DNA of 58,443 nucleotides, the filler included, from Sluysia triapertura (Eukaryota): NCBI GenBank assembly GCA_046118255.1. It is 5 parts of 5 records of this genome, joined end to end, with 100 filler letters (N's around TTAATTAATTAA, not from the genome) between each part and the next. Parts side by side here need not be neighbours in the genome. Positions count along the whole stretch, not along the records: positions 12,832 to 24,420 come from JBJNIA010183091.1; 4 more parts are not named here. One strand, given 5' to 3'. The notes beneath the pieces were generated by a model, which worked only from the letters and a program-made list of their open reading frames with translations, made no database searches and had not been told where the DNA came from. The position numbers were made by a program, and so were the translations under genes. This document shows, piece by piece, positions 12,732 through 47,298 of this stretch (within the stretch, counting starts at the first letter, position 1; each line of letters starts with the position of its first letter).

Positions 12732-12831
12732 NNNNNNNNNNNNNNNNNNNNNNNNNNNNNNNNNNNNNNNNNNNNTTAATTAATTAANNNNNNNNNNNNN
12801 NNNNNNNNNNNNNNNNNNNNNNNNNNNNNNN
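12732..12831. other. Artificial contig linker (N44-TTAATTAATTAA-N44)
   Basis: The identical 100-bp spacer with stops in all six frames recurs four times. Confidence 0.97.
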
Positions 12832-15120
12832 ATCGGCATTATTGCGCAATTATGATTTTATATTTCACACGTATTCCTTATTTCACTGCCATTTGCGCCA
12901 TTACCATTTGCTTTATCTCTCATTCACTCCACTGCTTGATATGTAAACTACTGCGAAATTTCTACATCTTTAAGAGTACAACCTTCAAGCCTCACGTTTG
13001 CTGCTCTTATTTAGCCCACTATATCAATCTTTAGTTACATAATGCAACAAGATCCTCTTGTAAGCTCTCAACATGATGAAGTGTAAGAACTGGTCTTCGT
13101 TGGGTAATTTTTATTACTCAACCTACCGTTCCTTACAAACAGTTGGCTCTTTACTCAACTTGGTCACTGCCTCGGCTGCTCATGGAACAATTGCTGATTT
13201 TTTAAAGAATACTCCGCGTGAGAATGTTCGGCCCAGTGGCGGGGGGGCCAGAAGATCATATTATTCGACTCGTCTCGAGCAATCCCTTGAGGAACTACTT
13301 GGGGCCCTACACCACACCACCCCCAAAAGGCAGCATGGTCAGCGCTCCTCTGCCAGAGAAGTTAAGAGAGTGAGTGAGTGTAGGAACTCCTCTTTGTTTC
13401 CAGTCAGCAGGTGAACCCGCTTCACAGAAGTCTATGAAATCAGCAGTTCCCAAACGATCACAATGGAACCTTTACTCCGCGTGTTCACGCTGGATCCAGT
13501 AGCGGAGGGATCCGAAGATCTCGTTCAATGAACGATTCAATCCAAACTAGGCAGGTGGACCTGCCAATCTACAGATGGTCAAGTGTACCACCTACGCGAA
13601 ACTGAAACTCCACGCGTACATGTTGAACCTAGTCGCGGAGGGGTTCGAAAATGGTCACCAACTATCGAAAACCGGACAGTTGAAAATGACAATGCTGGAA
13701 ATCAGAAACTTGGTAACCACAAAGTCAAAACTCCGCTGGTACACGCTAAACCTAGTCGCGGAGGGGTTCGAAGCATAAACAAAAACCCACAATCATTGGC
13801 CAATGAGAAAAATGGAGAACAAAGCATCAAGAAAAGGAAAGTGAGATGCCCAGTAGCGCAGGGGCTCGAAGATCGCAGCAGCACGCAGCACGGAAATCTC
13901 AAAATGAAAATCTAAAGGATAGTATTTGTTCTCTATGCCAAAAATATTTAAAATCACCTTTTTTAAACTTTCTAAATATCTCAATCCAAGTTAGGGGTTA
14001 TTGTTGCAACTTTTTTCACTTTAACACTTTCTTTCAATACTTACTACGGACCGAAATGTTATTGACTTGCGAAACTTTCTGCATTATAATACTTTTCTTT
14101 CCTCTTCTCATAATTTCCGAACCCCATTCCCTCCTTTTTGTAAGCATGTACTTAAGCCGCATCAATAACGAATTTAAAATTCTCTATGGTCATTCTGACT
14201 TTTCACATCTTCATCTCAAAGCTCCTCCTATTTCGAAACGACCTGTAAAGGCTACTACAGATATCATCTTGGAGACTCAAAAACCAATCAATGACTTTCT
14301 GGAAGGACTTCAGTTACTTTTCGATGAGAACTCCCTCTTGCCTCTACAGACTCCAAACTTCTTAAGTTTAAGTTTAATACTACTAATTATAATGCTACTA
14401 CCGTCACCGCTACTGCCACTAGTACTGCCATACCTGATGTCTGTCATCCGAAGTACCTGATGACATTGACCGGTTCGTTAAGTCTCAATAATTAACTTCT
14501 GACTTTTACTTCATTTCTGACTTCGCCAATGAGCCCTTGTATTTTGGTTCGGTCCGGTAGCGGAGGAACTAGAAGATATCCTGTAAATAATACTCAGCAT
14601 GCCAGGCCCAGTTGCAGAAGATCTGTTTATCCAATAGTGCAGAAACTCCGTGGGTACACGTTGTACCCAGTCTCGGAGGGGTCCGACGATCTCATGGTTT
14701 CTACAACCCAAACCAACTCCTACGACTGCGGTCCTCTTCTTTACGGATATATCAGACGCATCTCCTCTCAGAGGTCTTGCACTCGACTAACTGCTGCCAA
14801 CATTCGCTCTTACATCAAATCTCTTCGTCCTGAAAAACGCCTGATCGGGGCAGGTAAAATCTCTTCTACTCTTTTCTACCATTTCTACTTCTGTCACTAT
14901 GATGACAAGTATTCAGAATGACTATCATAATATGCAGTTGAAGCCTTCCTTCGAGACCAAGTCTGTCTTGACTCTTCCATGAGAATTATAAAACCTATCT
15001 GTTCCATTTCTCTTCTTGCTGGCGATTTATACGGGTTCTATAAATACTTTCCCTTGTCTCACTTCGCGAAGACCCAAAGAGATTTTAAATATACTCCGCG
15101 TGTTTATGATGGACCCAGTT
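12832..15120 (+). mobile_element. Copy A of the Ulp1-protease / pseudoknot-repeat element (rearranged, internally deleted)
   Basis: Repeat units at ~13211, 13474, 13607, 13730, 13846 (partial), 14530-14690 and 15093 (partial). The protease C-terminal part QTNSYDCGPLLYGYIRRISS...EKRLIGAGK aligns with 17836-18954. 12832-12917 matches 17508-17590 in inverted orientation. Confidence 0.7.
14695..15060 (+). pseudogene. Ulp1/C48 protease C-terminal fragment (catalytic Cys motif), zinc fingers deleted
   Basis: QTNSYDCG motif. FYFCHYD is joined directly to DKYSE*, whereas copy B has the zinc-finger segment between them. Confidence 0.75.
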
Positions 15121-17835
15121 AGAAAATTTAAAGATTTAAATTTTCTTCTTCATTATTCTTCTTACTTCTCTTTTGAATCTTTTTCTGATTCTAAAATACT
15201 CTCTAAAATACCTTCCTTTCTCTCAACATCTGTCTAGAATCTCTCGTTCTAAAGTTACTACCTACACCTTAATCTTTCCTTTTCTTGGCACTACTTATTC
15301 TGAAAAATTTACTATCCTTAAATCTGTCAAATTCCCGTCCTCACAAGTCAACAAAAAATAATCGACATCGCTTAAATAAAGATGGAAAAACAAGTAAATA
15401 ATTTTTGTTCCGCCCCACCATCTCAGTCAGCAGTGTCGATGGATTCTCAGAAGAGAAAATATTTTACATGTTGATGAACATTATATGTTCAATATCCAAT
15501 CAATACAAATTAGTTAATTATTTAGAATTATTAAGTATGGGTTATCTGATATCGACCAATATCATGGTAATGTTAAATTATTATAAAATTTATAATTTTA
15601 TATTTAAAATATTGAATATATATTCAATATTCATTTATTTAGATAAATGTTATGAAATATTAAACATTATTTAATATTCAAAAAGATAATGATGAATAAG
15701 AATAAATATAAAATTTATAATTTTATATTTAAAATATAAGTACAAGTTAGATAATGTAATCACGTTGAATTTTAAATTTTATAAAATTGGTAGTGTTGTC
15801 CTGAAATAAGTATTAAAGACGTTAGAATGGCACGTAATTTGCATCCAGATGACCAGCATGCGGTTATATATATTACTCAAGAAGCTGCAATAACAATTTA
15901 AATATCGGTCAGTGGCAAAACCATCACGTGTCGGCAAGGTCTACAAATAACCTAAGATGTAATAATTCTATGTTTTATATGATTAACAATTTTGTCAATA
16001 AATAGAATAACTTTGTATTTTTATATTGTAATTATACTTAATTGATACGTGCCTTAAGCACCATTTTCGTAATCATTATTGTTTACAGATTTATATGGAT
16101 TCTGATAATAGATCAAATTACAAAGTTGATTGTAAAACAATTAATAATAATTTAGTAAAATGATACTTTTAAAGCTAATAAAAATAATACCACAATACTT
16201 ATCTTTATATAAAGCAATCAAAATTGTTTGCACTTACTAAAACTGCTATAGAAAACCTTTCGAAACCTTACTACCTTCTAATAAAATATCAACCCTGCTA
16301 GAAAGCTTAATCGTTCGCTCAGAGATAAATTATTATTGCTTAAAGATAAGGCTTCATTTCATAAAGATTCAATCAATAAAAAACTTCTGCTGGCATACCT
16401 GATCAAATACGCAATGATGTAATAAAAATTACTGATAATTTTAATCAACTTAATAAATTAAATAATGAACTAGTGTGTCATGAATAATTATCGAAAATAA
16501 GTTCAAGCTTTTTTGAATATACAAATGCACAACTAACCAAAATGCAATATATTACATAACATAGAGACTATTATTAAACGTAGGAAAATGTTACTTAATG
16601 TTATACAAAACCCACATTTAACTTTACATACCCTCATATCTTCAATCACATTAAAATATTTGCGATATTTCACAATGCAGCCTTACTACCCAATTTCGAC
16701 ATATTTTATACTTACTGATAGGATAAATCATTAAAAATCATTAAAACCATCACATTTAAAATACATTAAATAATTTATAAAACATTATAAACTTCTTACC
16801 AAAATCTAAGTCTGATATGCTTCCAGAATTCAGTCAACTGAACCATTTTCAATCTTCCATATAAATGACTAAAATCCACTAATTCAGCTCTTAATTTTCT
16901 AAGTCATGTTTATTAATTTATTAGTAATTACTTATAAATTGCAACAATTATTTCGCAATTAACGATAAAAATAATTCAAAATCATATAGAAAAGTAATAC
17001 TTAAAATTCATACATTTAAACAAACGTTATAAAAGTAAATTATACAATTAATTTTTTTAAATAAATTAATTTAGTATCTCTAGTTTATTTATTTTATATT
17101 CAAAATATAATTTTAGAATGACTTAAAAGTGCAGTGAGTTTGCAATGTTTATCAAATAACTGCAAAAAAAATTTTTAAAACAAAATAAATTAATGTTCTA
17201 TCTCTTAATTCTTTAAAATTTTTCTTGTATTTTTAAACTATAACTATTTTCTATTTCGTTGGAAAATAAAGAATAACGAAATAAATTAACAATTTTGTTA
17301 TTGACAAAATTTTACTCGATGTTGTAGTATTATGCACTTAAAAATCTGCGTCGATCATGAAATTTATAAATATTAGCAATTTAATAATTGAAAATTATAT
17401 AAATTATTCACATTATATATAGAATAAAAATTATACAAATGTTGGATTTAGTGAAAGGTGGAGTAGATATGAGTGTTGTAACTTGTATAAAAATAAAAGA
17501 ATATTTATAAAGCAAATGATAATGGCGCAAATGGCACTGAAATAAGGAAAACGTGTGAAATATAAAATCTTAATTCGCAATAATGCTGATTGTAATTGAT
17601 TTAAGTAAATTAGCATTTAACACAATATATACTACTGCCAAAATACGCCAAAGTAGTACAATAAACTTTTGAAAAAATATAGCTAAACTTCCTTCGCGAC
17701 TCTTAAAAGTTGCTCATGTTGGCTACTAAAGTGATTAAAAATTAGAATTATCGAATAGGTGGGTTTTATGATTCTAATAGAATTGTCGGAACAGACCTGG
17801 TCACGAAGAAAAGCCTCAACTGCGTTCACAGATAG

Positions 17836-18954
17836 TCAATCTGATGACTTATCTTGAGTGTTTACTGGAAGATCAACGAGAGAGTCAATTTCAATAGAAA
17901 AGTTGGAGACGGATTGAAAGTGATGGAACAGAGAGCCGATGGAAAGAACTCGGAGACAATGGGAACAAAAGAAGGATGTGTCTGAAGGATTGAGGTCATG
18001 CGAAGCAAGATGGCGAGTTACATTGTTGTTGGTATCCGTAGGAGTAAAAGATTGGCCACAACGGTTAACGTGACAGTACAAAAGACAGTCAGAGTGGCAG
18101 AAATAGAATTGATAAGAAGAGAAGGAAGAAGAAGAAGGTTTGCCAGCTCCGACCAAGCGTTTTTCGGAATAAAGGGCCTTAACAATGAAAAGGATAGAAG
18201 TCGCATTAAAACGAGTGCAATGCCTGTTGGAAGAAAGGCGTTGGATGAATCCACAGAGAAGAGGACCGCAGTCAAAGGAGTTGGTTTGAAGAGAGTGAGT
18301 GCGACCGGCGACGATAGAGTAGGAAGGATGATTGTAAAGTAAGGAGAATTGAGAAAGGATAATGCGGGCCTTATCGGTTCGATAGGGATGAAGATTAGCA
18401 GAAAGAGGATCCATAAGTTCGGCTTTTCCAGTGCATTTGTCAGCAAAGATAAGGTACCAGTGTTTGTTAAGGTTAAGAACAAAGAATATTTTAGTAGCGG
18501 AAAGAACTTTGTAAAGGTCAATAAAGGTATGATAGGTTGGGGATTTGTGAAAAAGAGACTCGGTCGCGAAATCAGGTACAAAGAGAAAGTCTGGAGATAG
18601 ACTGAGACTGTCAACAAAAGTTATGATGTCATCAGACGAGAAAAGATATTGTAGATGGCGAATGTCAGAAGGTTTAGCATTCCTAGAAAGATGAATTTGT
18701 TTAAGTTTCGAAATCTTTGCGTCAATAGTAACAGGGGAATCAAAAAGGTTCAGTGAGGCATAAAAGTCATCGAAAGAAGTTTTAGATGCTGCAGAATCCT
18801 GTTCATCGTTATCAGAATGAGTAGATGACGCAATATAAGTGGAAGGAGGAACAACATCAAGAGGAGGAAGAGCAATGGACTGGATTGATTCAGAAGAAGA
18901 AGGAACATCAGCAATAGTAGGAGTAACTTGATTATTAGAGCCGACGTTTTTCAA
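17836..18954 (-). CDS. Ulp1/SENP-like (C48, clan CE) cysteine protease followed by C2H2-type zinc fingers; part of a longer decayed polyprotein
   Basis: Catalytic motifs in order: IFFVLNLNKHWYL (His), ELMDPL (Asp), QTNSFDCG (Gln/Cys). Then CHVNRCGQSF..VTRHLASH and FFCSHC..LFHH. No introns. A Ser/Pro-rich linker continues upstream to the repeat array. Confidence 0.85.
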   Translation of the reverse strand: MKNVGSNNQVTPTIADVPSSSESIQSIALPPLDVVPPSTYIASSTHSDNDEQDSAASKTSFDDFYASLNLFDSPVTIDAKISKLKQIHLSRNAKPSDIRHLQYLFSSDDIITFVDSLSLSPDFLFVPDFATESLFHKSPTYHTFIDLYKVLSATKIFFVLNLNKHWYLIFADKCTGKAELMDPLSANLHPYRTDKARIILSQFSLLYNHPSYSIVAGRTHSLQTNSFDCGPLLCGFIQRLSSNRHCTRFNATSILFIVKALYSEKRLVGAGKPSSSSFSSYQFYFCHSDCLLYCHVNRCGQSFTPTDTNNNVTRHLASHDLNPSDTSFFCSHCLRVLSIGSLFHHFQSVSNFSIEIDSLVDLPVNTQDKSSD

Positions 18955-19276
18955 GAGTTTTTCCCGAAGTGCAGGGCAGAGTTTCCGAACCGGTGGGAGG
19001 TTTGAAGGAGGAGGTTAGAGTGTAATTTTTGAAGACTTAGGAGCAGAGGATGGAAAAGCAGAAGAAGAACGCCTAAGAAGAGAAGAATGAGATTGACAGA
19101 ATCGAGCAGGGGCATTTTTAGGAATTAAGTAAAAAGAAGAAGTAGCAGAAGTAGAAGCAGGTTTAGGAAGATCATAAGAAATAGTCCTACAAGGAGCAAG
19201 GCTTGGTAGAAGATAGAAGTAAGGTGCAGAAAGAAGCAGAGGAAAGTCAGATTTTGGAAAAATATCTGCAGCGGAT

Positions 19277-19853
19277 CTTCGGGCTCCCCGCTACTGGGCC
19301 CACTAAGCGGAGTATTATTTTTAATAATTGGTTGTTTGGACTTTTTGGATTTTCTAGCCCCTCCGCTACTGGGCCGGACATGCGGAGTATTCTTTAAATC
19401 TGTTTCTGGTTTTCGGTCCCCTCCGCACTGGGACCAGCATTTACCAGCGGAGTATATTTATTTCTAAATTTTCGGGCCCCTCCGCTACCGGGCCGGACAT
19501 GCGGAGTATTCTTTAAAATATCATGCTGCCGGAATCTTCGGTCCTCCCCGCTACTGGGACCAAAATGTACAAGCGGAGTATATTTTTCGAAGCCATAGAG
19601 TTTTCGGACCCCCCGCGAATTGGTCCACTATTTACACGCGGAGTATCTTTATCATGTTGGAATAATCTTCGGGCCCCTCCGCGACTGGGCCGGACATGCG
19701 GAGTATTATTTGACATTAACATGGATCTTCGGACCCCCTCCCGCGAATGGATCCATTATGTACACGCGGAGTATTTTTAACATTTTTAAAATTCTGGAAA
19801 ACTCGAAAATCTCTTCGGGCCCCTCCGCGACTGGGCCGGACATGCGGAGTATT
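19277..19853 (-). repeat. Tandem array of nine GC-rich units, consensus ATACTCCGC-N6/12-GGNCCC-AGTA-GCGGAG-GGGNCC-GAA, with unique AT-rich spacers
   Basis: Unit starts (A of ACT) at 19850, 19772, 19704, 19644, 19579, 19507, 19453, 19388 and 19313. Confidence 0.95.
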
Positions 19854-20749
19854 TTTTGTCACAGGAGCCGAATAAGGTGATCTTCATTTTGCGGGAACGA
19901 ACAAAAGTTTTTACACAATATTAGACCATGCAGTGAGAAAAATAAGAGTTTTCTTACATTTTCAATAAAATATACATACCATCTCGGTTTTACTAATCGT
20001 TTCATCACCGTATCTGGCTCTTAAGGATTAGACCATACAGTGACAAAATAAGAAATATGCAATTAAATACATCATTCTCGTAAGTTATCAGACAACTTTA
20101 AATTTACCTTTATAAGTATTATTTGTGGGCGTTTAAACTGAGTGTTACGACTTCTAATTATGTCAATGGAATAATTACTAATTAGATCTTAATGATATTT
20201 CTTTTTGCAACACTTACTATTCATTTTATTTTTCGAATTCATAGACTTTACTTATTTATAAACGAACTTATTACCATTTTATAAGAACTTAAAGTCGGGT
20301 TGAGAAATTAGGAACACAAATTATTTACATACCTCACCATTTGTGATGGTTTTCCATCCATTTTTAGTCATATGTGATGGTATTAATTTTCACACTAAAA
20401 TAAGCAGTTATATTATAAAAATATTTATTTTAATAGTGTTACTTAATTTACGTAATTATTCTTTATTTACTTATTATATTTTTATTTTTAGCTAGTTAAT
20501 ATTTAGTGATCATGATTTACACAACCTGTTTAATTTGTCTGCGGTCCATACGAAAATTTACAGATTTCGTTTCTTCTGTCTCTATCTTTTGTTTAATACG
20601 TCTCTTTCTCCTTTACCATCATGTCCCCTATGTCTTCACTGTCGAATTCATTTCTGACTCGGAACAGCCAGGGATTGATATTATTCAATCAGTAGGAGGA
20701 GGAAAAATCTTGGTAAGCATGGGTTGGTGAGACCAACCGTTGAGTTTAT

Positions 20750-22053
20750 TGCAGGTCTTACCAAGTCAAAGAAACGTAACAGTCGTAGACGGTACCTCAA
20801 ACACCTTTATAAGACTAATAATTCTAATAATAAGAAACCAATTAACCACTTTTCGAAAAGGAAATAGGACTTTCATAACCTATTACATTTACTTTTAGTA
20901 TATATATATATATATATAATTTTAAAAACTTACGATTTTTATTATTGTTCATAATTTTAGCTCCATTCAAGCTCGTATTTTACAGCAACAGAAAAACTTT
21001 TATATCCATGATGACATGTTCTGTCATAAAGCATTATCCCTGCTTTCTTTTCTAATTCTGTAGAAACTCCCAACAACCTTAAGAGTGAGCTAAATCTTAA
21101 CATGGCTACGCACATTTTTTCAATGAACCCTGATCTACCCCGTATTTCTTTGAATGGTCTTTCGCAAATACCAGACGACATTAACTCTATCTATATAGTT
21201 GTGGCTGGAGGAATTACTAAGGTCTCACTTTTGGAAAAAGGTTTACCCTTCATTACCAGAGTTCACGGGTTTTCCACACTGCACGTTACAAATATTCATA
21301 AATGGTGCAGGATTATAGTTGAAGCTGGTGAGTTCCCTACATCTCTTTACCCTCTTCTTGTTGGAGAACAGTCGTTTTTGCCCAACTTGTATGCCAAAAA
21401 TATTGTTAATCAAGACCAATGGAACAAATGTTCCCTTTTTATCAACCTATGATGAATACCGTTTAACTTTTGTAGCTTTTTCTTACGCCTTCGATTTTCT
21501 TCATAAACCTTATGTCCCCTAATCAAAACAGTTTCATTCAGAAGCTAACATTAAACCTCGCCTCCGAATAAAGAATTTCGTATGGGATAGAAAGGATATA
21601 AAAGATGAAGATATCGCGAAGGCTAAGGATGTAGATGACGTCCGACTTTACTACATTATAAGATATTAGTTTCCTTACATTCTCGTATTATAATTGAAAG
21701 TGCGTTTGCTATTCGGATGGCTTAAAGAGGTCAAAAATATGTCGAACCACTATCTGTTATCTTATGACACAGCTGATCACATTTCGCGTGCTCGACGAAC
21801 TTTTCGTTTACTTTATCCCGTTCCGATACGTATGACATGCACACGTATGACGTTTGAGTTAATATCGCTTTTTGATTACATCAGAAAGACATTGTTTTTA
21901 CCTAGTTGTAATTTATCACCTCCCTCTTTTTTTCCTTTTGTTTCTTCTTCATCTGCTAATTCTACTACTTTGACTACTACAACTTCTCTTTCAGCACCGT
22001 CATCATCATCGACATCAACTAAATTATTACTCACGGGAGACTTTAGTGTGTGA
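20750..22053 (+). pseudogene. Unknown gene family copy 2 (paralog of 299-1858)
   Basis: Exon GLTKSKKRNSRRRYLKHLYK..KPI, an intron ending TTTTAG at 20960, then IQARILQQQKNFY..LKSELNLNMATHIFS... Roughly half of residues are identical to copy 1 by eye. Frameshifts and deletions are present. Confidence 0.75.
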
Positions 22054-23783
22054 TGTACCCTAAGCCAATTTAGTTGTTTAAAGATTTTTTGATGATTGAA
22101 TGTGTTTATAAATTCATGAATTAGAGACGTTATTATAATTTTGGGTTTTGTAATGAATTTAATATTCTTTCTGTAACATTCGTGTTGACGATGTTTTAGA
22201 AGTAAATTTAGTACGCTGTAAGTAATTTTGACGCTGAAAGTAACATGCGGATCACTTAAATCTTTACTAAGGTCCATGAACATATTTTTTGCGTTAGTTG
22301 AGAATTGCCTAAGCCTAATTTTAATTTCTTTTACTAAATTATAGATTTCAAAATTTTTGACAAATTGAAGAGGTTTAGCTTCATAGTAAACAAAAATTTC
22401 AACAAAATTAATTTCTATTAATCTTAATATACATTTAATCATTAATAAATTAAGAGATAAATCTAAAGTTCCTTTTAGATCGTGAATGTCAAAATTAAAC
22501 ATAAATAGATAAATTGATATATATTTGGTTATTAAAAATGTCCTAATCAATTTTAAAATTTCGTTTTCACCTAATTCTTCTTCCTCTGAACTTTCAAGAT
22601 ACGTCACATTTTGTTGTTCTTCACGAATCCATTTAATGGTTCTGTAAACTAAATTAAAACTAAATGAACATGAATTATTTTAGTATAGTACAAATAATTA
22701 AGAAAGAAAACAGCGTTTCCTTGATACATCGATTCACAAATCAATAATGTGCATCTAGATAATCTGCCGGTGTAGAGATAATGCATCGCTGACTTCAGAA
22801 CCTCAGAATTATCGGAATAAATAGAGTTTAACTCTTTTTCGAATGTTCGCATAACAATGTCTGAACGTAGATCGGTTACGTCGTGCAAAATACTAATATC
22901 AACTTGTGGCGGTACTAGAATTATAGTGCAATACTGTGACTTAGTAATAATTCGTAGGATTTGATCATGACTTTCCTTTTTTGATTTGTTTGGAATGGTA
23001 AGTGTATTAATTTCAATTAGAAAATTCCTGTAATACTTCTGAGAAAATTTCATCATATTAAATACTTTATACACATAATTGTTTATCATGGTAAATTCGT
23101 TTAGATACGATATCGTATAGACGTAATATTGACGTAATGATTAAGTAATACCATAATTACTAATGGTTGAACAGAGTAGATTTGGTAAAGAATTAGAGTG
23201 TTTTTGACAATAGTTTGCTGAATCATAGTGACTCCTTTTTTTAGATTGTCATCATTGTGTATATCTGCAGATCCATTTCGAGTAGAATCATTGTCTGGAC
23301 ATCTCAGAAAAGCTAATATTTCGTTGGAGAATATTAGTTCGTTTGAAAACTTTATGTCTACAAAATTGAGGTACCTCATCATTAGCTGCATATGATCCTA
23401 AATAATTATCTTCAAAAAGTGTGCTTGCTAATTTTATCATCATTTCTTGTAATCCTGATCTGCAAATACGATTTATAACATTTATCTTTATAGTTGGATT
23501 TTCGCAAAATATACTTGTATCTTCAAAATAACTAAATCGTAATTTAAAATGTGACTCAGATCGATTCAAACGTTGTACACAATTAAAATACGAAGTCGTT
23601 CAATTTTTTTTGTTTAACTTTACATTTGTCCCGCGATTCGTGAAATCTTTTAAACTCCACAGTATCTAAATTAATTTGAAAAGTACTGCTTTTTAAACTC
23701 TTTACTATGTTTTTTAGATAGCTCAGACAGCGGATATATACGATTACAAAATTGTGATAATTTTTTACTTTGATATATTTCAC
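22050..23783 (-). pseudogene. Long intronless frameshifted coding relic including a divergent BTB/POZ-like segment
   Basis: Five abutting ORFs. YCTIILV...DLRSDIVMRTF...NSEVLKSAMHYLYTGRL resembles the BTB pattern (DV.L.V...LAARS..F..MF...E.F..LL.YLYTG.L). Confidence 0.45.
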
Positions 23784-24420: not shown

Positions 24421-24520
24421 NNNNNNNNNNNNNNNNNNNNNNNNNNNNNNNNNNNNNNNNNNNNTTAATTAATTAANNNNNNNNNNNNNNNNNNNNNNNN
24501 NNNNNNNNNNNNNNNNNNNN
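24421..24520. other. Artificial contig linker
   Basis: N44-TTAATTAATTAA-N44. Confidence 0.97.
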
Positions 24521-35346: not shown

Positions 35347-35446
35347 NNNNNNNNNNNNNNNNNNNNNNNNNNNNNNNNNNNNNNNNNNNNTTAATTAATT
35401 AANNNNNNNNNNNNNNNNNNNNNNNNNNNNNNNNNNNNNNNNNNNN
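35347..35446. other. Artificial contig linker
   Basis: N44-TTAATTAATTAA-N44. Confidence 0.97.
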
Positions 35447-36008: not shown

Positions 36009-39000
36009 TAATAATAATAATAATACTATAATATAATAATAAATTACCAACCCAATTACTTTATCTTTACTATCTACTCCATCTTTATCAGTTGTATACA
36101 CTTCATCTTTTTCTCCAGAATCTGCTTGTTTAGCCACATTATTAACCAAATATTTCTTGCGATCCTTTTTGCGACTCTTTAGTATTAACGATGTAACATG
36201 TCATAATATTTTAAATAAAATACTCAATATTAAAACAATTTATTATTATATATCTACTTGTAAATATGGACTGTTTTCTTCAATTCCAGTCTTGTCATTG
36301 GAACCGACTCCAAAACCACCAGTACGATCTATATCTCCAGCTTTTGTAGACGTAGGTTGTGGTGTTTCAGATGATGTGGTGCCAGTAGTTGATTGCTGCC
36401 TATCTCTTTTACTACCAGTACCAGTTTGTCTTGTTGTAGCTGCTGGAGGGGTTACTGTAGTACCAGCCCTTTGTGCCGGAATATTACTGGTAGTATCAGC
36501 AACACCTTGGCGTAAACGTTCGTCAAAATCCAATTTTTGTTGCCTATAACAAAAGCCAGTGATTATTTCTAATGAAACTTCATATTACATCAGCTTATTT
36601 TATATCCTCACATCCAAATAGAAACCGCATGTCAAATTTAAAACCAATTGCCGTAAAAGTTGCATTGCCATGGTATTTATTAACGAATATGATTTTTTTT
36701 AAATGTTTATCGCCAAAGTAAAGGTTCGCATTTTTGTGATTTATTTTCTCTAGTTTTAATTTTGAAAAAAACAGCATCATCAAATTGAAAATGTAAATTA
36801 AATGCAATTTGATTGGTCAATTTGAATGAATTTGTGGTCAAATTAAAAACATTCAAGAATAAAAACAAAAAAATTAGACNNNNNNNNNNNNNNNNNNNNN
36901 NNNNNNNNNNNNNNNNNNNNNNNNNNNNNNNNNNNNNNNNNNNNNNNNNNNNNNNNNNNNNNNNNNNNNNNNNNNNNNNNNNNNNNNNNNNNNNNNNNNN
37001 NNNNNNNNNNNNNNNNNNNNNNNNNNNNNNNNNNNNNNNNNNNNNNNNNNNNNNNNNNNNNNNNNNNNNNNNNNNNNNNNNNNNNNNNNNNNNNNNNNNN
37101 NNNNNNNNNNNNNNNNNNNNNNNNNNNNNNNNNNNNNNNNNNNNNNNNNNNNNNNNNNNNNNNNNNNNNNNNNNNNNNNNNNNNNNNNNNNNNNNNNNNN
37201 NNNNNNNNNNNNNNNNNNNNNNNNNNNNNNNNNNNNNNNTCTTAAACGCTTCGTATACTGTTTCGATTTGTCGAACATTTACTATCTGAATAAATAAATT
37301 TTATTTGCACTGTATTTAAGTCATCAATGAAACTACTTCATAAATAACACGTTGTTGCTATTATATTGATTTTTGTAATGGTAAATGTAAAATTTTCCAA
37401 TTAGTATTGCATTCAGATTTTAAAATTTTAATATCGACATTTGTTTTATCAATCTACTTAATATTTAATTATCGATTTTGTAAACCATTATTTTATTGTT
37501 ACATTTTTTCCGAATTATATTAAGATTCATTTAAATTTTTGCCATTTGTATCGCAGTATCACCTCTTAACTTTAGACCTTGCATCATTACGAAGTTTCAA
37601 CTCATAAATTTGAACTTTAAAAGAGACCTTAAGGCATTTTAAGGCAAGTTTGGTATTTGTAATAAAAAAAAGAATAAAAACTAAAATTCAATTTAAGGTC
37701 TATTCAAAAGTTTAAAAACATGTAAACAAAATTCAAATATTCGATCTGCTTCTACTCAAATAATCTTGGTATGACCTTTTGTAACTATAGAATCGTAAAG
37801 TTTGTTATTTTCCAGTCATCCAATGAAAATTGAGAACATTTCCAATTGATCATTTTCTTCAACCTATCAAACACTATGATTCACATAAAACTTTCTTGAC
37901 AGACATAATTGTATATCAAAAGAAATTTTATATTTTAAATTATATCCAAATTTTCAATTTTTTTGCATTTAAATCATCCAATAATATTATTTTCGTTATT
38001 TAAGTCGCTATTTTCTTTTTTTATTTGCTTTTTACATAATTGTACTTTACTAGCAAATTAATCAGACTCGTTTTCTATATTTTCTAAACATTGTTAATTA
38101 ACTTATCTTTACATCTTTCTGTATGTTTTCCTTGTTGCTTTTAGTTCCAAAGTCGATTTTTTTCGAAACCACTTTAGCTTGCTTTATTATTGGCTTGAAT
38201 TATACCGCAGTTTTAAAACTGACCTATCATCAATTTTTTGCACAAAATTTGCTCATTGGTCCTTTTCATCATTACCATTGTCAATCTTGGTTTGACTTGA
38301 ATTTCTCATCTTTTTCCCATTCTTTTCCAAATTTACATATTTAATACTTTCTGATCAAAATGTTTTGTATTAAATTTAACACTGTATAAATAATAAAAAT
38401 ATCATAAAATAATAACAAACAATAAGCCAAAAACAATTAAAATCTCTTATTAATTCCAAAGTTTTTTTTCAAATCTCTTCACATAAATTCATTTAAATAA
38501 TAGTGAACCTTGATGTGCTGAAGTCCTATTTCGGTGATTTTCATTTTCAACAAGATGGAGCACCTACATTCTATACCAAGGATGTTCGACAATGGCTTGA
38601 TGAAACATTTCCTGGACTTGGATTTGACGCGAGGACCAATCGAATGGCCTGCCAGATACCCTTATCTGACACCGCCTGATTTTTTTCTATGGGTAGAACG
38701 CAGTTTATGCTAAACATTTGAACATTTGTAAATACTACATATACCTATTAAATTTGTCGTTTTTGATATCTAATTTTTATTTAAGTTTGTGGTTCGGTTA
38801 CTTTTGGATCTTACCAGACTTAATTAGCATAGAATAAGTAAGAAGATGGAAATAAAAAAAACAGATCTAAATATAGTTATATTATCAATGTTTCAATTTT
38901 AAATGAAACAATACTAAATTTATGATTTTCGTAGTTTTAAATAAATTTAAATCTAAGACATTTATAAAATAAATATAAAAATCTCCAAAACTAACATCGA

Positions 39001-47198: not shown

Positions 47199-47298
47199 NN
47201 NNNNNNNNNNNNNNNNNNNNNNNNNNNNNNNNNNNNNNNNNNTTAATTAATTAANNNNNNNNNNNNNNNNNNNNNNNNNNNNNNNNNNNNNNNNNNNN
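47199..47298. other. Artificial contig linker
   Basis: N44-TTAATTAATTAA-N44. Confidence 0.97.

Follow-up and report, generated by a model that had tools for sequence, protein, structure and literature searches.

Small predicted pseudoknots, in tandem and in frame, ahead of a Ulp1-type protease in Sluysia triapertura

We found that a decayed element copy in Sluysia triapertura begins with nine tandem units of a small predicted pseudoknot, that the spacers between these units all keep one reading phase and are free of stop codons in it, and that this phase is the frame of a Ulp1-type protease encoded downstream. For this copy, a dual constraint, on RNA structure and on a frame that stays open through to the protease, is well supported and in our judgment highly probable. 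Structured RNA in the 5' coding region of R2-group elements is already known, in the form of a single domain. What is new is that a small, uncatalogued pseudoknot is repeated in tandem and kept in frame, an arrangement that is not described in the literature that we found.

The window, i.e., the whole stretch of 58,443 nucleotides that was analyzed, is mostly AT-rich (18 to 30% GC), with nine N gaps and hardly any long frames. It contains two GC-richer islands, copy A at ~13070-15130 on the plus strand and copy B at ~19890-17750 on the minus strand. These are diverged relatives, sharing 61% amino acid identity over 67 residues of the protease region and ~70% nucleotide identity. Copy B, which has the nine-unit array at its head on the minus strand, is a dead copy: from its start to the protease it has suffered six lesions, namely, an off-phase ATG, four indels within cores, and a stop ahead of the protease. 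The evidence base is therefore one well-preserved dead copy (B) and one scrambled copy (A).

Several other features of the window were recorded. N fillers of 100 bp, which are assembly padding, lie at 12732-12831, 24421-24520, 35347-35446, and 47199-47298, ~11 to 12 kb apart, and contain a central 12-bp palindrome with stops in all frames; a gap of 360 N's lies at 36880-37239, and AAT/ATT microsatellites are plentiful. Positions 21876-23600 (minus strand) hold overlapping frames of 98 to 267 codons, probably a single broken gene, for which Pfam gave no match at an E value of 0.01. Finally, an 85-bp stretch is present in only two copies in the window, inverted and 93% identical, one upstream of copy A at the gap edge (12832-12916, plus strand) and one downstream of copy B (17507-17590, minus strand). 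This pair is far closer than the elements themselves (~70%) and could be a target repeat, another element, or an assembly effect.

Reading frame through the copy B array

We divided each repeat into a core, from ACT as far as the GAA tail, and an intervening spacer, from the tail GAA to the next ACT. On the minus strand, each unit starts at the higher coordinate of its core. Five of the nine cores have a standard length of 37 or 43 nt: B1 (19814..19850, short loop, 37 nt), B3 (19668..19704, short loop, same sequence as B1), B5 (19537..19579, long loop, 43 nt), B6 (19471..19507, short loop), and B8 (19352..19388, short loop). The other four carry indels, which were called against the 37- and 43-nt cores of the remaining units. 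B2 (19728..19772, long loop) has 2 additional nt in its G run, B4 (19603..19644, long loop) and B9 (19278..19313, short loop) each lack 1 nt in the G run, and B7 (19412..19453, long loop) lacks 1 nt in its 4-nt middle loop. A covariance-model scan detected no unit upstream of the array, and the alternation of stem-2 types along it had a P value of 0.13.

A preliminary description of this DNA had given the unit spacings as 78, 68, 60, 65, 72, 54, 65, and 75 nt, and these values are exact, as is the 6-nt difference between the short- and long-loop variants. The three spacings that are not multiples of 3 do contain indels within the core (+2 in unit 2, −1 in unit 4, and −1 in unit 7) and become 66 nt once corrected; however, the same description missed a fourth indel, the −1 of unit 9, which lies between the array and the linker. 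The ATG proposed as the start (19885..19887, minus strand, with A at −3) is, as claimed, separated from the units by an A6 run and out of their phase by one base, and the 11 open codons that precede unit B1 contain no in-phase ATG.

All four frameshifts of copy B fall within the 357 nt of cores and none within the spacers or the 1,436 nt downstream. This placement would be expected about once in 1,000 if frameshifts were uniformly distributed, and it is not explained by a simple decay model. Three of the four lie in the G run, where the two 3' strands meet. The indels in the G run and the loop may be due to sequencing error, to slippage of the DNA, or to slippage of the element's reverse transcriptase (RT) on the structure.

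The in-frame character of the array was confirmed in copy B without any repair. The eight spacers measure 42, 24, 24, 24, 30, 18, 24, and 39 nt, all multiples of 3, and all eight share one stop-free phase, that of the protease frame. In the phase defined by the cores, the 75 spacer codons include no stop, while the other two frames are closed in three and six of the eight spacers, respectively; all 13 stop triplets present in the spacers are off-frame (probability, 0.005). Among 100,000 shuffles, zero stops were obtained in 0.04% when the spacer ends were left free, in 0.4% when 3+3 nt were fixed, and in 1.8% when 3+6 nt were fixed, and the value was 1.9% when a single spacer was used for each of the five lengths. 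Under random phase, joint agreement of the spacers (with each of their five lengths counted once), of the phase downstream, and of the loop variants, which differ by 6 nt, would be expected in 1 case in 2,187, a figure to be read with the phase tests having been picked after the data were seen. In their middles, the four 24-nt spacers are no more alike than background (23% identity versus 28% expected), indicating that these spacers are not fresh duplicates and that the phase has outlasted the spacer sequence.

Beyond the array, the phase of the unit tail continues through 87 open codons of a Ser/Pro-rich linker (19018..19278, minus strand), a TAA at 19017-19015, and a frame of 392 codons (17836..19014, minus strand); over this stretch the three frames hold 1, 6, and 44 stops. 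The run from the array into the Ser/Pro linker had been anticipated, and it has the same phase as the unit 9 tail, but the TAA ahead of the protease had been overlooked. An in-phase UUUAAAG is found 4 nt before stem 1 in B6 (19515-19509, minus strand), B8 (19396-19390, minus strand), and A1 (13201-13207, plus strand), probably owing to common ancestry of the spacer end.

RNA structure of the unit

Fourteen full units, nine from copy B and five from copy A, were aligned. Stem 1 is CUCCGC/GCGGAG and stem 2 is of the GGNCC/GGNCC type, formed by a GGNCCC-type strand and a GGGNCC-type strand that directly follows stem 1, the two 3' strands being joined without a linker. The first loop measures 5 nt, or 11 nt in the long variant, the middle loop measures 4 nt, and the third is absent, an unusual layout. 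An AGU and a GAA are conserved and unpaired.

In a covariation test on the same related copies from which the structure had been drawn, stems 1 and 2 were paired in 92.8% of 166 cells, and 11 cells were altered on both sides. None of 500 shuffles equaled either value, and controls with slid strands paired in 35 to 58%. At the center of stem 2, the pair is A-U in six units, G-C in six, and U-A in two, and stem 1 shows no two-sided change in the 14 units. Counted by pairs, 3 of 12 have a two-sided change, which was equaled by 50 of the 500 shuffles. There are seven G-U wobbles on the coding strand versus three on the opposite strand, which makes an antisense function less favored. Either stem alone contributes about −3 to −11 kcal/mol. 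Pseudoknot-free folding of single units, tried for 5 of the 14, was no better than that of shuffles (z, 0.87 to −1.21), and the minimum-energy fold of the whole array mixes units. Stems 1 and 2 presumably form simultaneously. A sequence-blind descriptor applied to both strands of the window recovered nine of the 14 full units, with no other match, and the covariance model added three further partial units, in copy A.

The codons of the cores are constrained where the protein is indifferent. Core third positions are T in 14 of 14 units, G in 13, T in 14, C in 14, G in 13, and A in 14, and one further third position is A in nine units, G in three, and a gap in two; for the protease, copies A and B have 12 of 20 four-fold sites in common. 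CCG is present in 13 of 14 cores versus 1 of the 36 Pro codons downstream, and none of the nine downstream Gly codons is GGG. T33 and A50 (the U of AGU and the A of CGA) are synonymous and unpaired, yet they are fixed in all 14 units, and this suggests a part in tertiary contacts, in recognition by a protein, or in catalysis. Conversely, the compensatory RNA changes alter residues (Arg/Gly/Glu/Lys and Ala/Asp/Val), whereas synonymous sites are frozen. The RNA thus dictates the core sequence, and the protein side mainly demands that the units be in phase and without a stop. Dual coding as first proposed is borne out by the phase, the avoidance of stops, the stem covariation, and the frozen synonymous sites, but the term "peptide repeat" overstates the protein side, the repeat being largely a by-product of the RNA motif.

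We compared the unit with known RNA classes and looked for relatives. Rfam gave no match in the window at gathering thresholds and three and two unrelated weak matches at E values up to 10. HDV-like ribozymes are built as a nested double pseudoknot with P3/L3 and P1.1; this class was rejected, as the unit has only 4 nt where P3/L3 would sit and no Rfam match. A −1 frameshift pseudoknot is preceded by an in-phase slippery heptamer 5 to 9 nt upstream, and it was rejected as well, since such a heptamer is found at this distance in 1 of 14 units (UUUAAAG lies at 4 nt in three units and AAAAAAU at 1 nt in one). Searches of phages and plasmids by blastn returned no match. A scan of prokaryotic genomes returned two loci, of 68% and 75% GC, against 0.4 to 59 expected, and these were rejected as chance; the covariance model scored one at an E value of 0.07 and missed the other. 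The former, at positions 2001-2040 of an actinomycete contig (L001), is a chance-level pattern match with four possible stem-2 pairs. Altogether, neither phages, plasmids, nor prokaryotic genomes yielded a relative, nor did the proteins searched include one with the peptide repeat, and no report of a tandem in-frame array of pseudoknots or ribozymes in a NeSL-type element was found in the openly accessible literature.

Protease, element class, and the second copy

Within the 392-codon frame, which has the unit phase and comprises linker, Ulp1-type protease, and zinc fingers, positions 18220..18501 (minus strand) match Peptidase_C48 (Ulp1) in Pfam (E value, 7.6e-6; 26.3 bits against a cutoff of 20.7), and His185, Asp202, Gln243, and Cys249 are present. 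The predicted fold matched SENP/Ulp1 structures first, in a low-confidence model (pLDDT of only 52.6), and a sequence search of the PDB gave only two weak matches (E values of 0.56 and 0.82). The protease is followed by a pair of C2H2-like zinc-finger motifs (17914..18081, minus strand), recognized by sequence pattern and by alignment to the Cys/His pattern of database protein P0005; the pair has no Pfam match. In both copies, an L-x-G-A-G-K lies 38 residues past the catalytic Cys (18154-18137, minus strand, and 14841-14858, plus strand) and is a possible self-processing site. The frame ends at a TGA, beyond which 50 codons are readable (17836-17680, minus strand) and match copy A at 14904-15007. 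Because the similarity to copy A runs on, this TGA is probably a lesion rather than the end of the open reading frame (ORF).

A search of 1.84 billion representative proteins yielded six matches at an E value of 0.001 or better, all at 5.6e-8 or weaker and restricted to the protease. Peptidase_C48 was found in all six and RVT_1 in one. The best match combines two Peptidase_C48 domains with RVT_1 and, by eye, a restriction-like endonuclease end, and another runs into RT-like sequence. Among protein clusters at 90% identity of similar or greater length, none matched the 392-aa frame, and an alignment of seven repeat-bearing stretches had no match in clusters at 90% identity either; the Atlas search gave no usable match, and the peptide repeat was not seen by eye in the 600-aa N terminus of P0005. 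Given these data, the locus appears to be a 5' fragment from a NeSL/Utopia-type (R2-group) non-LTR retrotransposon, a class inferred from the protease alone, as none of the 120 window frames of at least 62 codons matches an RT and both copies end early. A Ulp1-like protease at the N terminus has been described for NeSL and Utopia-1_TSP elements (PMC4640811). These members of the R2 group, which have an RLE endonuclease, resemble the present locus in their N-terminal Ulp1-like protease with zinc fingers (PMC4640811); the locus differs in that RT and endonuclease are missing from the window. Likewise, no U2, spliced-leader, rRNA, or tRNA target was recognized by Rfam or tRNA matches in the window, from which the 3' ends of the elements are missing. 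The accessible text of PMC4640811 does not mention a repeat array.

Copy A has an in-phase ATG 46 codons before its first unit, within a frame of 113 codons that runs through A1 (13073..13414, plus strand). Its array (13211..13870, plus strand) has long spacers and consists of four full units, starting at 13211, 13474, 13607, and 13730, and a 3' half unit (13849-13870). The two peptides reported to lie in frame 123 nt apart in this copy do so. As support for the in-frame reading, copy A is divided. In its favor are the in-phase ATG, reached without repair (1,194 of 20,000 shuffles were open here as well), and the 196 codons that stay open in the unit phase past the last array unit (13870..14460, plus strand), a length not seen in 20,000 mononucleotide shuffles, with the other frames closing after 14 and 11 codons. 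Against it, only two of five intervals are in phase, compared with 1.7 by chance, and single-base adjustment performed no better than on shuffles. Since BLASTP found no similarity between the post-array frame of copy A and the linker of copy B, and since copy A is frameshifted elsewhere and starts near an assembly gap, we regard it as modest evidence.

Further downstream, two partial units and one full unit (14549..14693, plus strand) occupy the place where copy B has the His/Asp part of its protease. They are followed by the C-terminal part of the protease (14709..14903, plus strand; 67 aa, 61% identical to copy B) and by an isolated 5' half unit (15087..15130, plus strand; covariance model E value, 0.002). 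The array fragments at 14549-14700 (plus strand) thereby replace ~250 nt holding the catalytic His and Asp of the copy A protease, and one of them is shortened by an in-phase deletion of 9 nt. Unit fragments may have come to lie within and behind this protease by template jumping, microhomology deletion, or misassembly.

Possible functions of the array

The reading that we favor, with a probability of about 0.4 and by analogy with R2 elements, is that the modules are binding sites for the element's own protein that lie inside the ORF and refold after translation. On this reading, the locus would be the 5' part of an ORF, the only one of an R2-group (NeSL/Utopia-like) non-LTR retrotransposon with a Ulp1 protease, and a 37/43-nt RNA module would have been amplified in tandem within the N-terminal coding region. 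In the active parent, ribosomes would have started upstream, at one AUG, and crossed all nine units, unwinding the modules (two stems of 5 to 6 bp each) and producing a disordered basic N terminus. The modules would then refold into repeated cis-acting binding sites, the zinc fingers being their likeliest reader, and binding would help the element protein to load on its own RNA.

R2 elements offer precedents in their structured 5' coding RNA and in a 3' pseudoknot with a purine tail (PMC2346776, PMC12203849, PMC11601368). The 5' coding RNA of R2Bm holds a pseudoknot and directs the R2 protein (PMC2346776, PMC12203849). It is likewise a pseudoknotted structure in the 5' coding region of an R2-group ORF that acts via the element protein, but it is one 323-nt domain with one pseudoknot, whereas the present locus has nine 37/43-nt modules in tandem, and the likeness is one of analogy and not of homology, the window having no Rfam match. 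In avian R2, a pseudoknot and a GGAAAAG hinge are read by ZnF3 and other domains (PMC11601368). The avian and testudine R2 3' UTRs thus provide a small pseudoknot with a purine tail that undergoes base-specific reading by the element protein, ZnF3 among others; unlike the array, this pseudoknot is single, noncoding, and in the 3' UTR, and the two are likened here by their general layout.

Other explanations have to be weighed against this reading. If the array were located in a UTR, the phase pattern would have arisen accidentally, through the way in which the units were duplicated and through slippage by 3 nt in a genome rich in AAT. The chance-level intervals of copy A, the confinement of all copy B frameshifts to cores, the off-phase ATG of copy B, and the abundance of AAT/ATT microsatellites are in line with this, but all eight spacers are in phase despite their saturated sequence, all 13 stops are off-frame, and the phase coincides with the protease frame, and we consider this explanation very improbable. 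The peptide itself could matter, either because the element's own Ulp1-type protease cuts each unit at its Gly-Gly or because the array encodes an RGG-type RNA-binding tail. Clan CE proteases cleave after Gly-Gly. Read from the unit start, 10 of 14 units encode Gly-Gly, compared with none of the 480 downstream codons of copy B, and a Gly-Gly or L-x-G-A-G lies 38 to 43 residues past the catalytic Cys in both copies and in three of the six protein matches (Gly-Gly at 42 to 43 residues in these three). However, the Gly codons are also paired strands, so that the RNA may force Gly-Gly; moreover, residues vary with the compensatory pairs when synonymous sites do not, and the spacer peptides are not conserved. 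A predicted complex of the protease domain with a 35-aa unit peptide, modeled without an alignment, scored 0.00 and spoke neither for nor against cleavage. A role for the peptide itself seems improbable to us.

Explanations at the RNA level include mechanical roadblocks, which would slow ribosomes and so limit the element's own expression or would block 5'-3' exonucleases on an uncapped transcript, as xrRNAs do. Tandem redundancy at the 5' end and the conservation of unpaired bases would fit such a role, and the R2 ribozyme fold shields from 5' exonucleases (PMC12203849). Tandem xrRNAs are known, as are xrRNAs in coding subgenomic RNAs (PMC8374639), and those of flaviviruses and plant viruses are likewise serial small pseudoknotted modules; they are, however, viral and form a ring of 15 to 16 nt round the 5' end, whereas the array units are predicted pseudoknots without an Rfam match. 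The units also have short stems and no three-way junction, and only 1 of 14 has a slippery heptamer at 5 to 9 nt; we therefore regard roadblocks as unlikely. Alternatively, each unit could actively cleave itself as a ribozyme, be it a collapsed twister or a member of a new class, with any unit making the transcript's 5' end and translation starting there or after it. As any unit could be the 5' end, every downstream spacer would be forced to be in phase and open. Non-LTR elements carry ribozymes at this position (PMC8501958, PMC6765202), the segments by eye follow the order of the Schistosoma twister, CUCC, GC, UG, CCG-G-U-CCC-A, GC, GGAG, GGG (PMC8501958), cleavage-linked initiation has been reported (PMC13725137), and unit fragments break up the copy A protease. 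Yet at the general-acid position 11 of 14 units have U and only three have A, and changing this A to U or C killed activity in five of five natural twisters (PMC11662667). In addition, GGAG followed by GAGGG and the loop CCCAAGC are each found in 0 of 14 units, no Rfam ribozyme matches at E values up to 10, and copy A has an ordinary in-phase ATG. Active cleavage is, in our view, quite unlikely. The same holds for its most specific version, a joint claim that the twister would have collapsed to a pseudoknot of two stems in which the former P4 5' strand pairs past GGG, that its catalytic purines would be resupplied by the conserved AGU loop or the GAA tail, and that it would represent a natural noncanonical form or a new ribozyme class of less than 45 nt. 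If it were true, the array would be a ladder of alternative 5' ends, each with an open in-phase frame, and unit-length fragments would be stop-free and multiples of three.

The similarity to twister deserves separate mention. The unit has the order and letters of several core segments in common with type P1 twisters and the Perere-3 T-variants, and it is also located 5' in a non-LTR element. Twister P2 (CUCC/GGAG) and the GC and CCC/GGG pseudoknots are present as stems 1 and 2, in contiguous register. It differs in being in frame and in tandem and in having no P4 3' strand, no L2 linker, and no G-A between P2 and GGG; GAGGG occurs in 10 of 14 units solely by sharing the P2 strand. A canonical twister was therefore rejected: the general-acid A, the general-base G-A, and the P4 stem are all wanting, and there is no Rfam match. 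Judged from these segments, descent from a twister with loss of catalysis may be an attractive lead, because a ribozyme that cuts would be hard to amplify inside an ORF. The accessible text of PMC10085705 reports that other permutations of twister were searched for and that none was found.

For the biology of these elements, the array provides a 40-nt module with which to test how NeSL-type elements recognize or translate their own RNA. It is also a possible example of a ribozyme scaffold retained after catalysis was lost. Finally, with its cores and its spacers, it represents a natural case in which selection at the RNA level can be separated from selection at the level of the frame.
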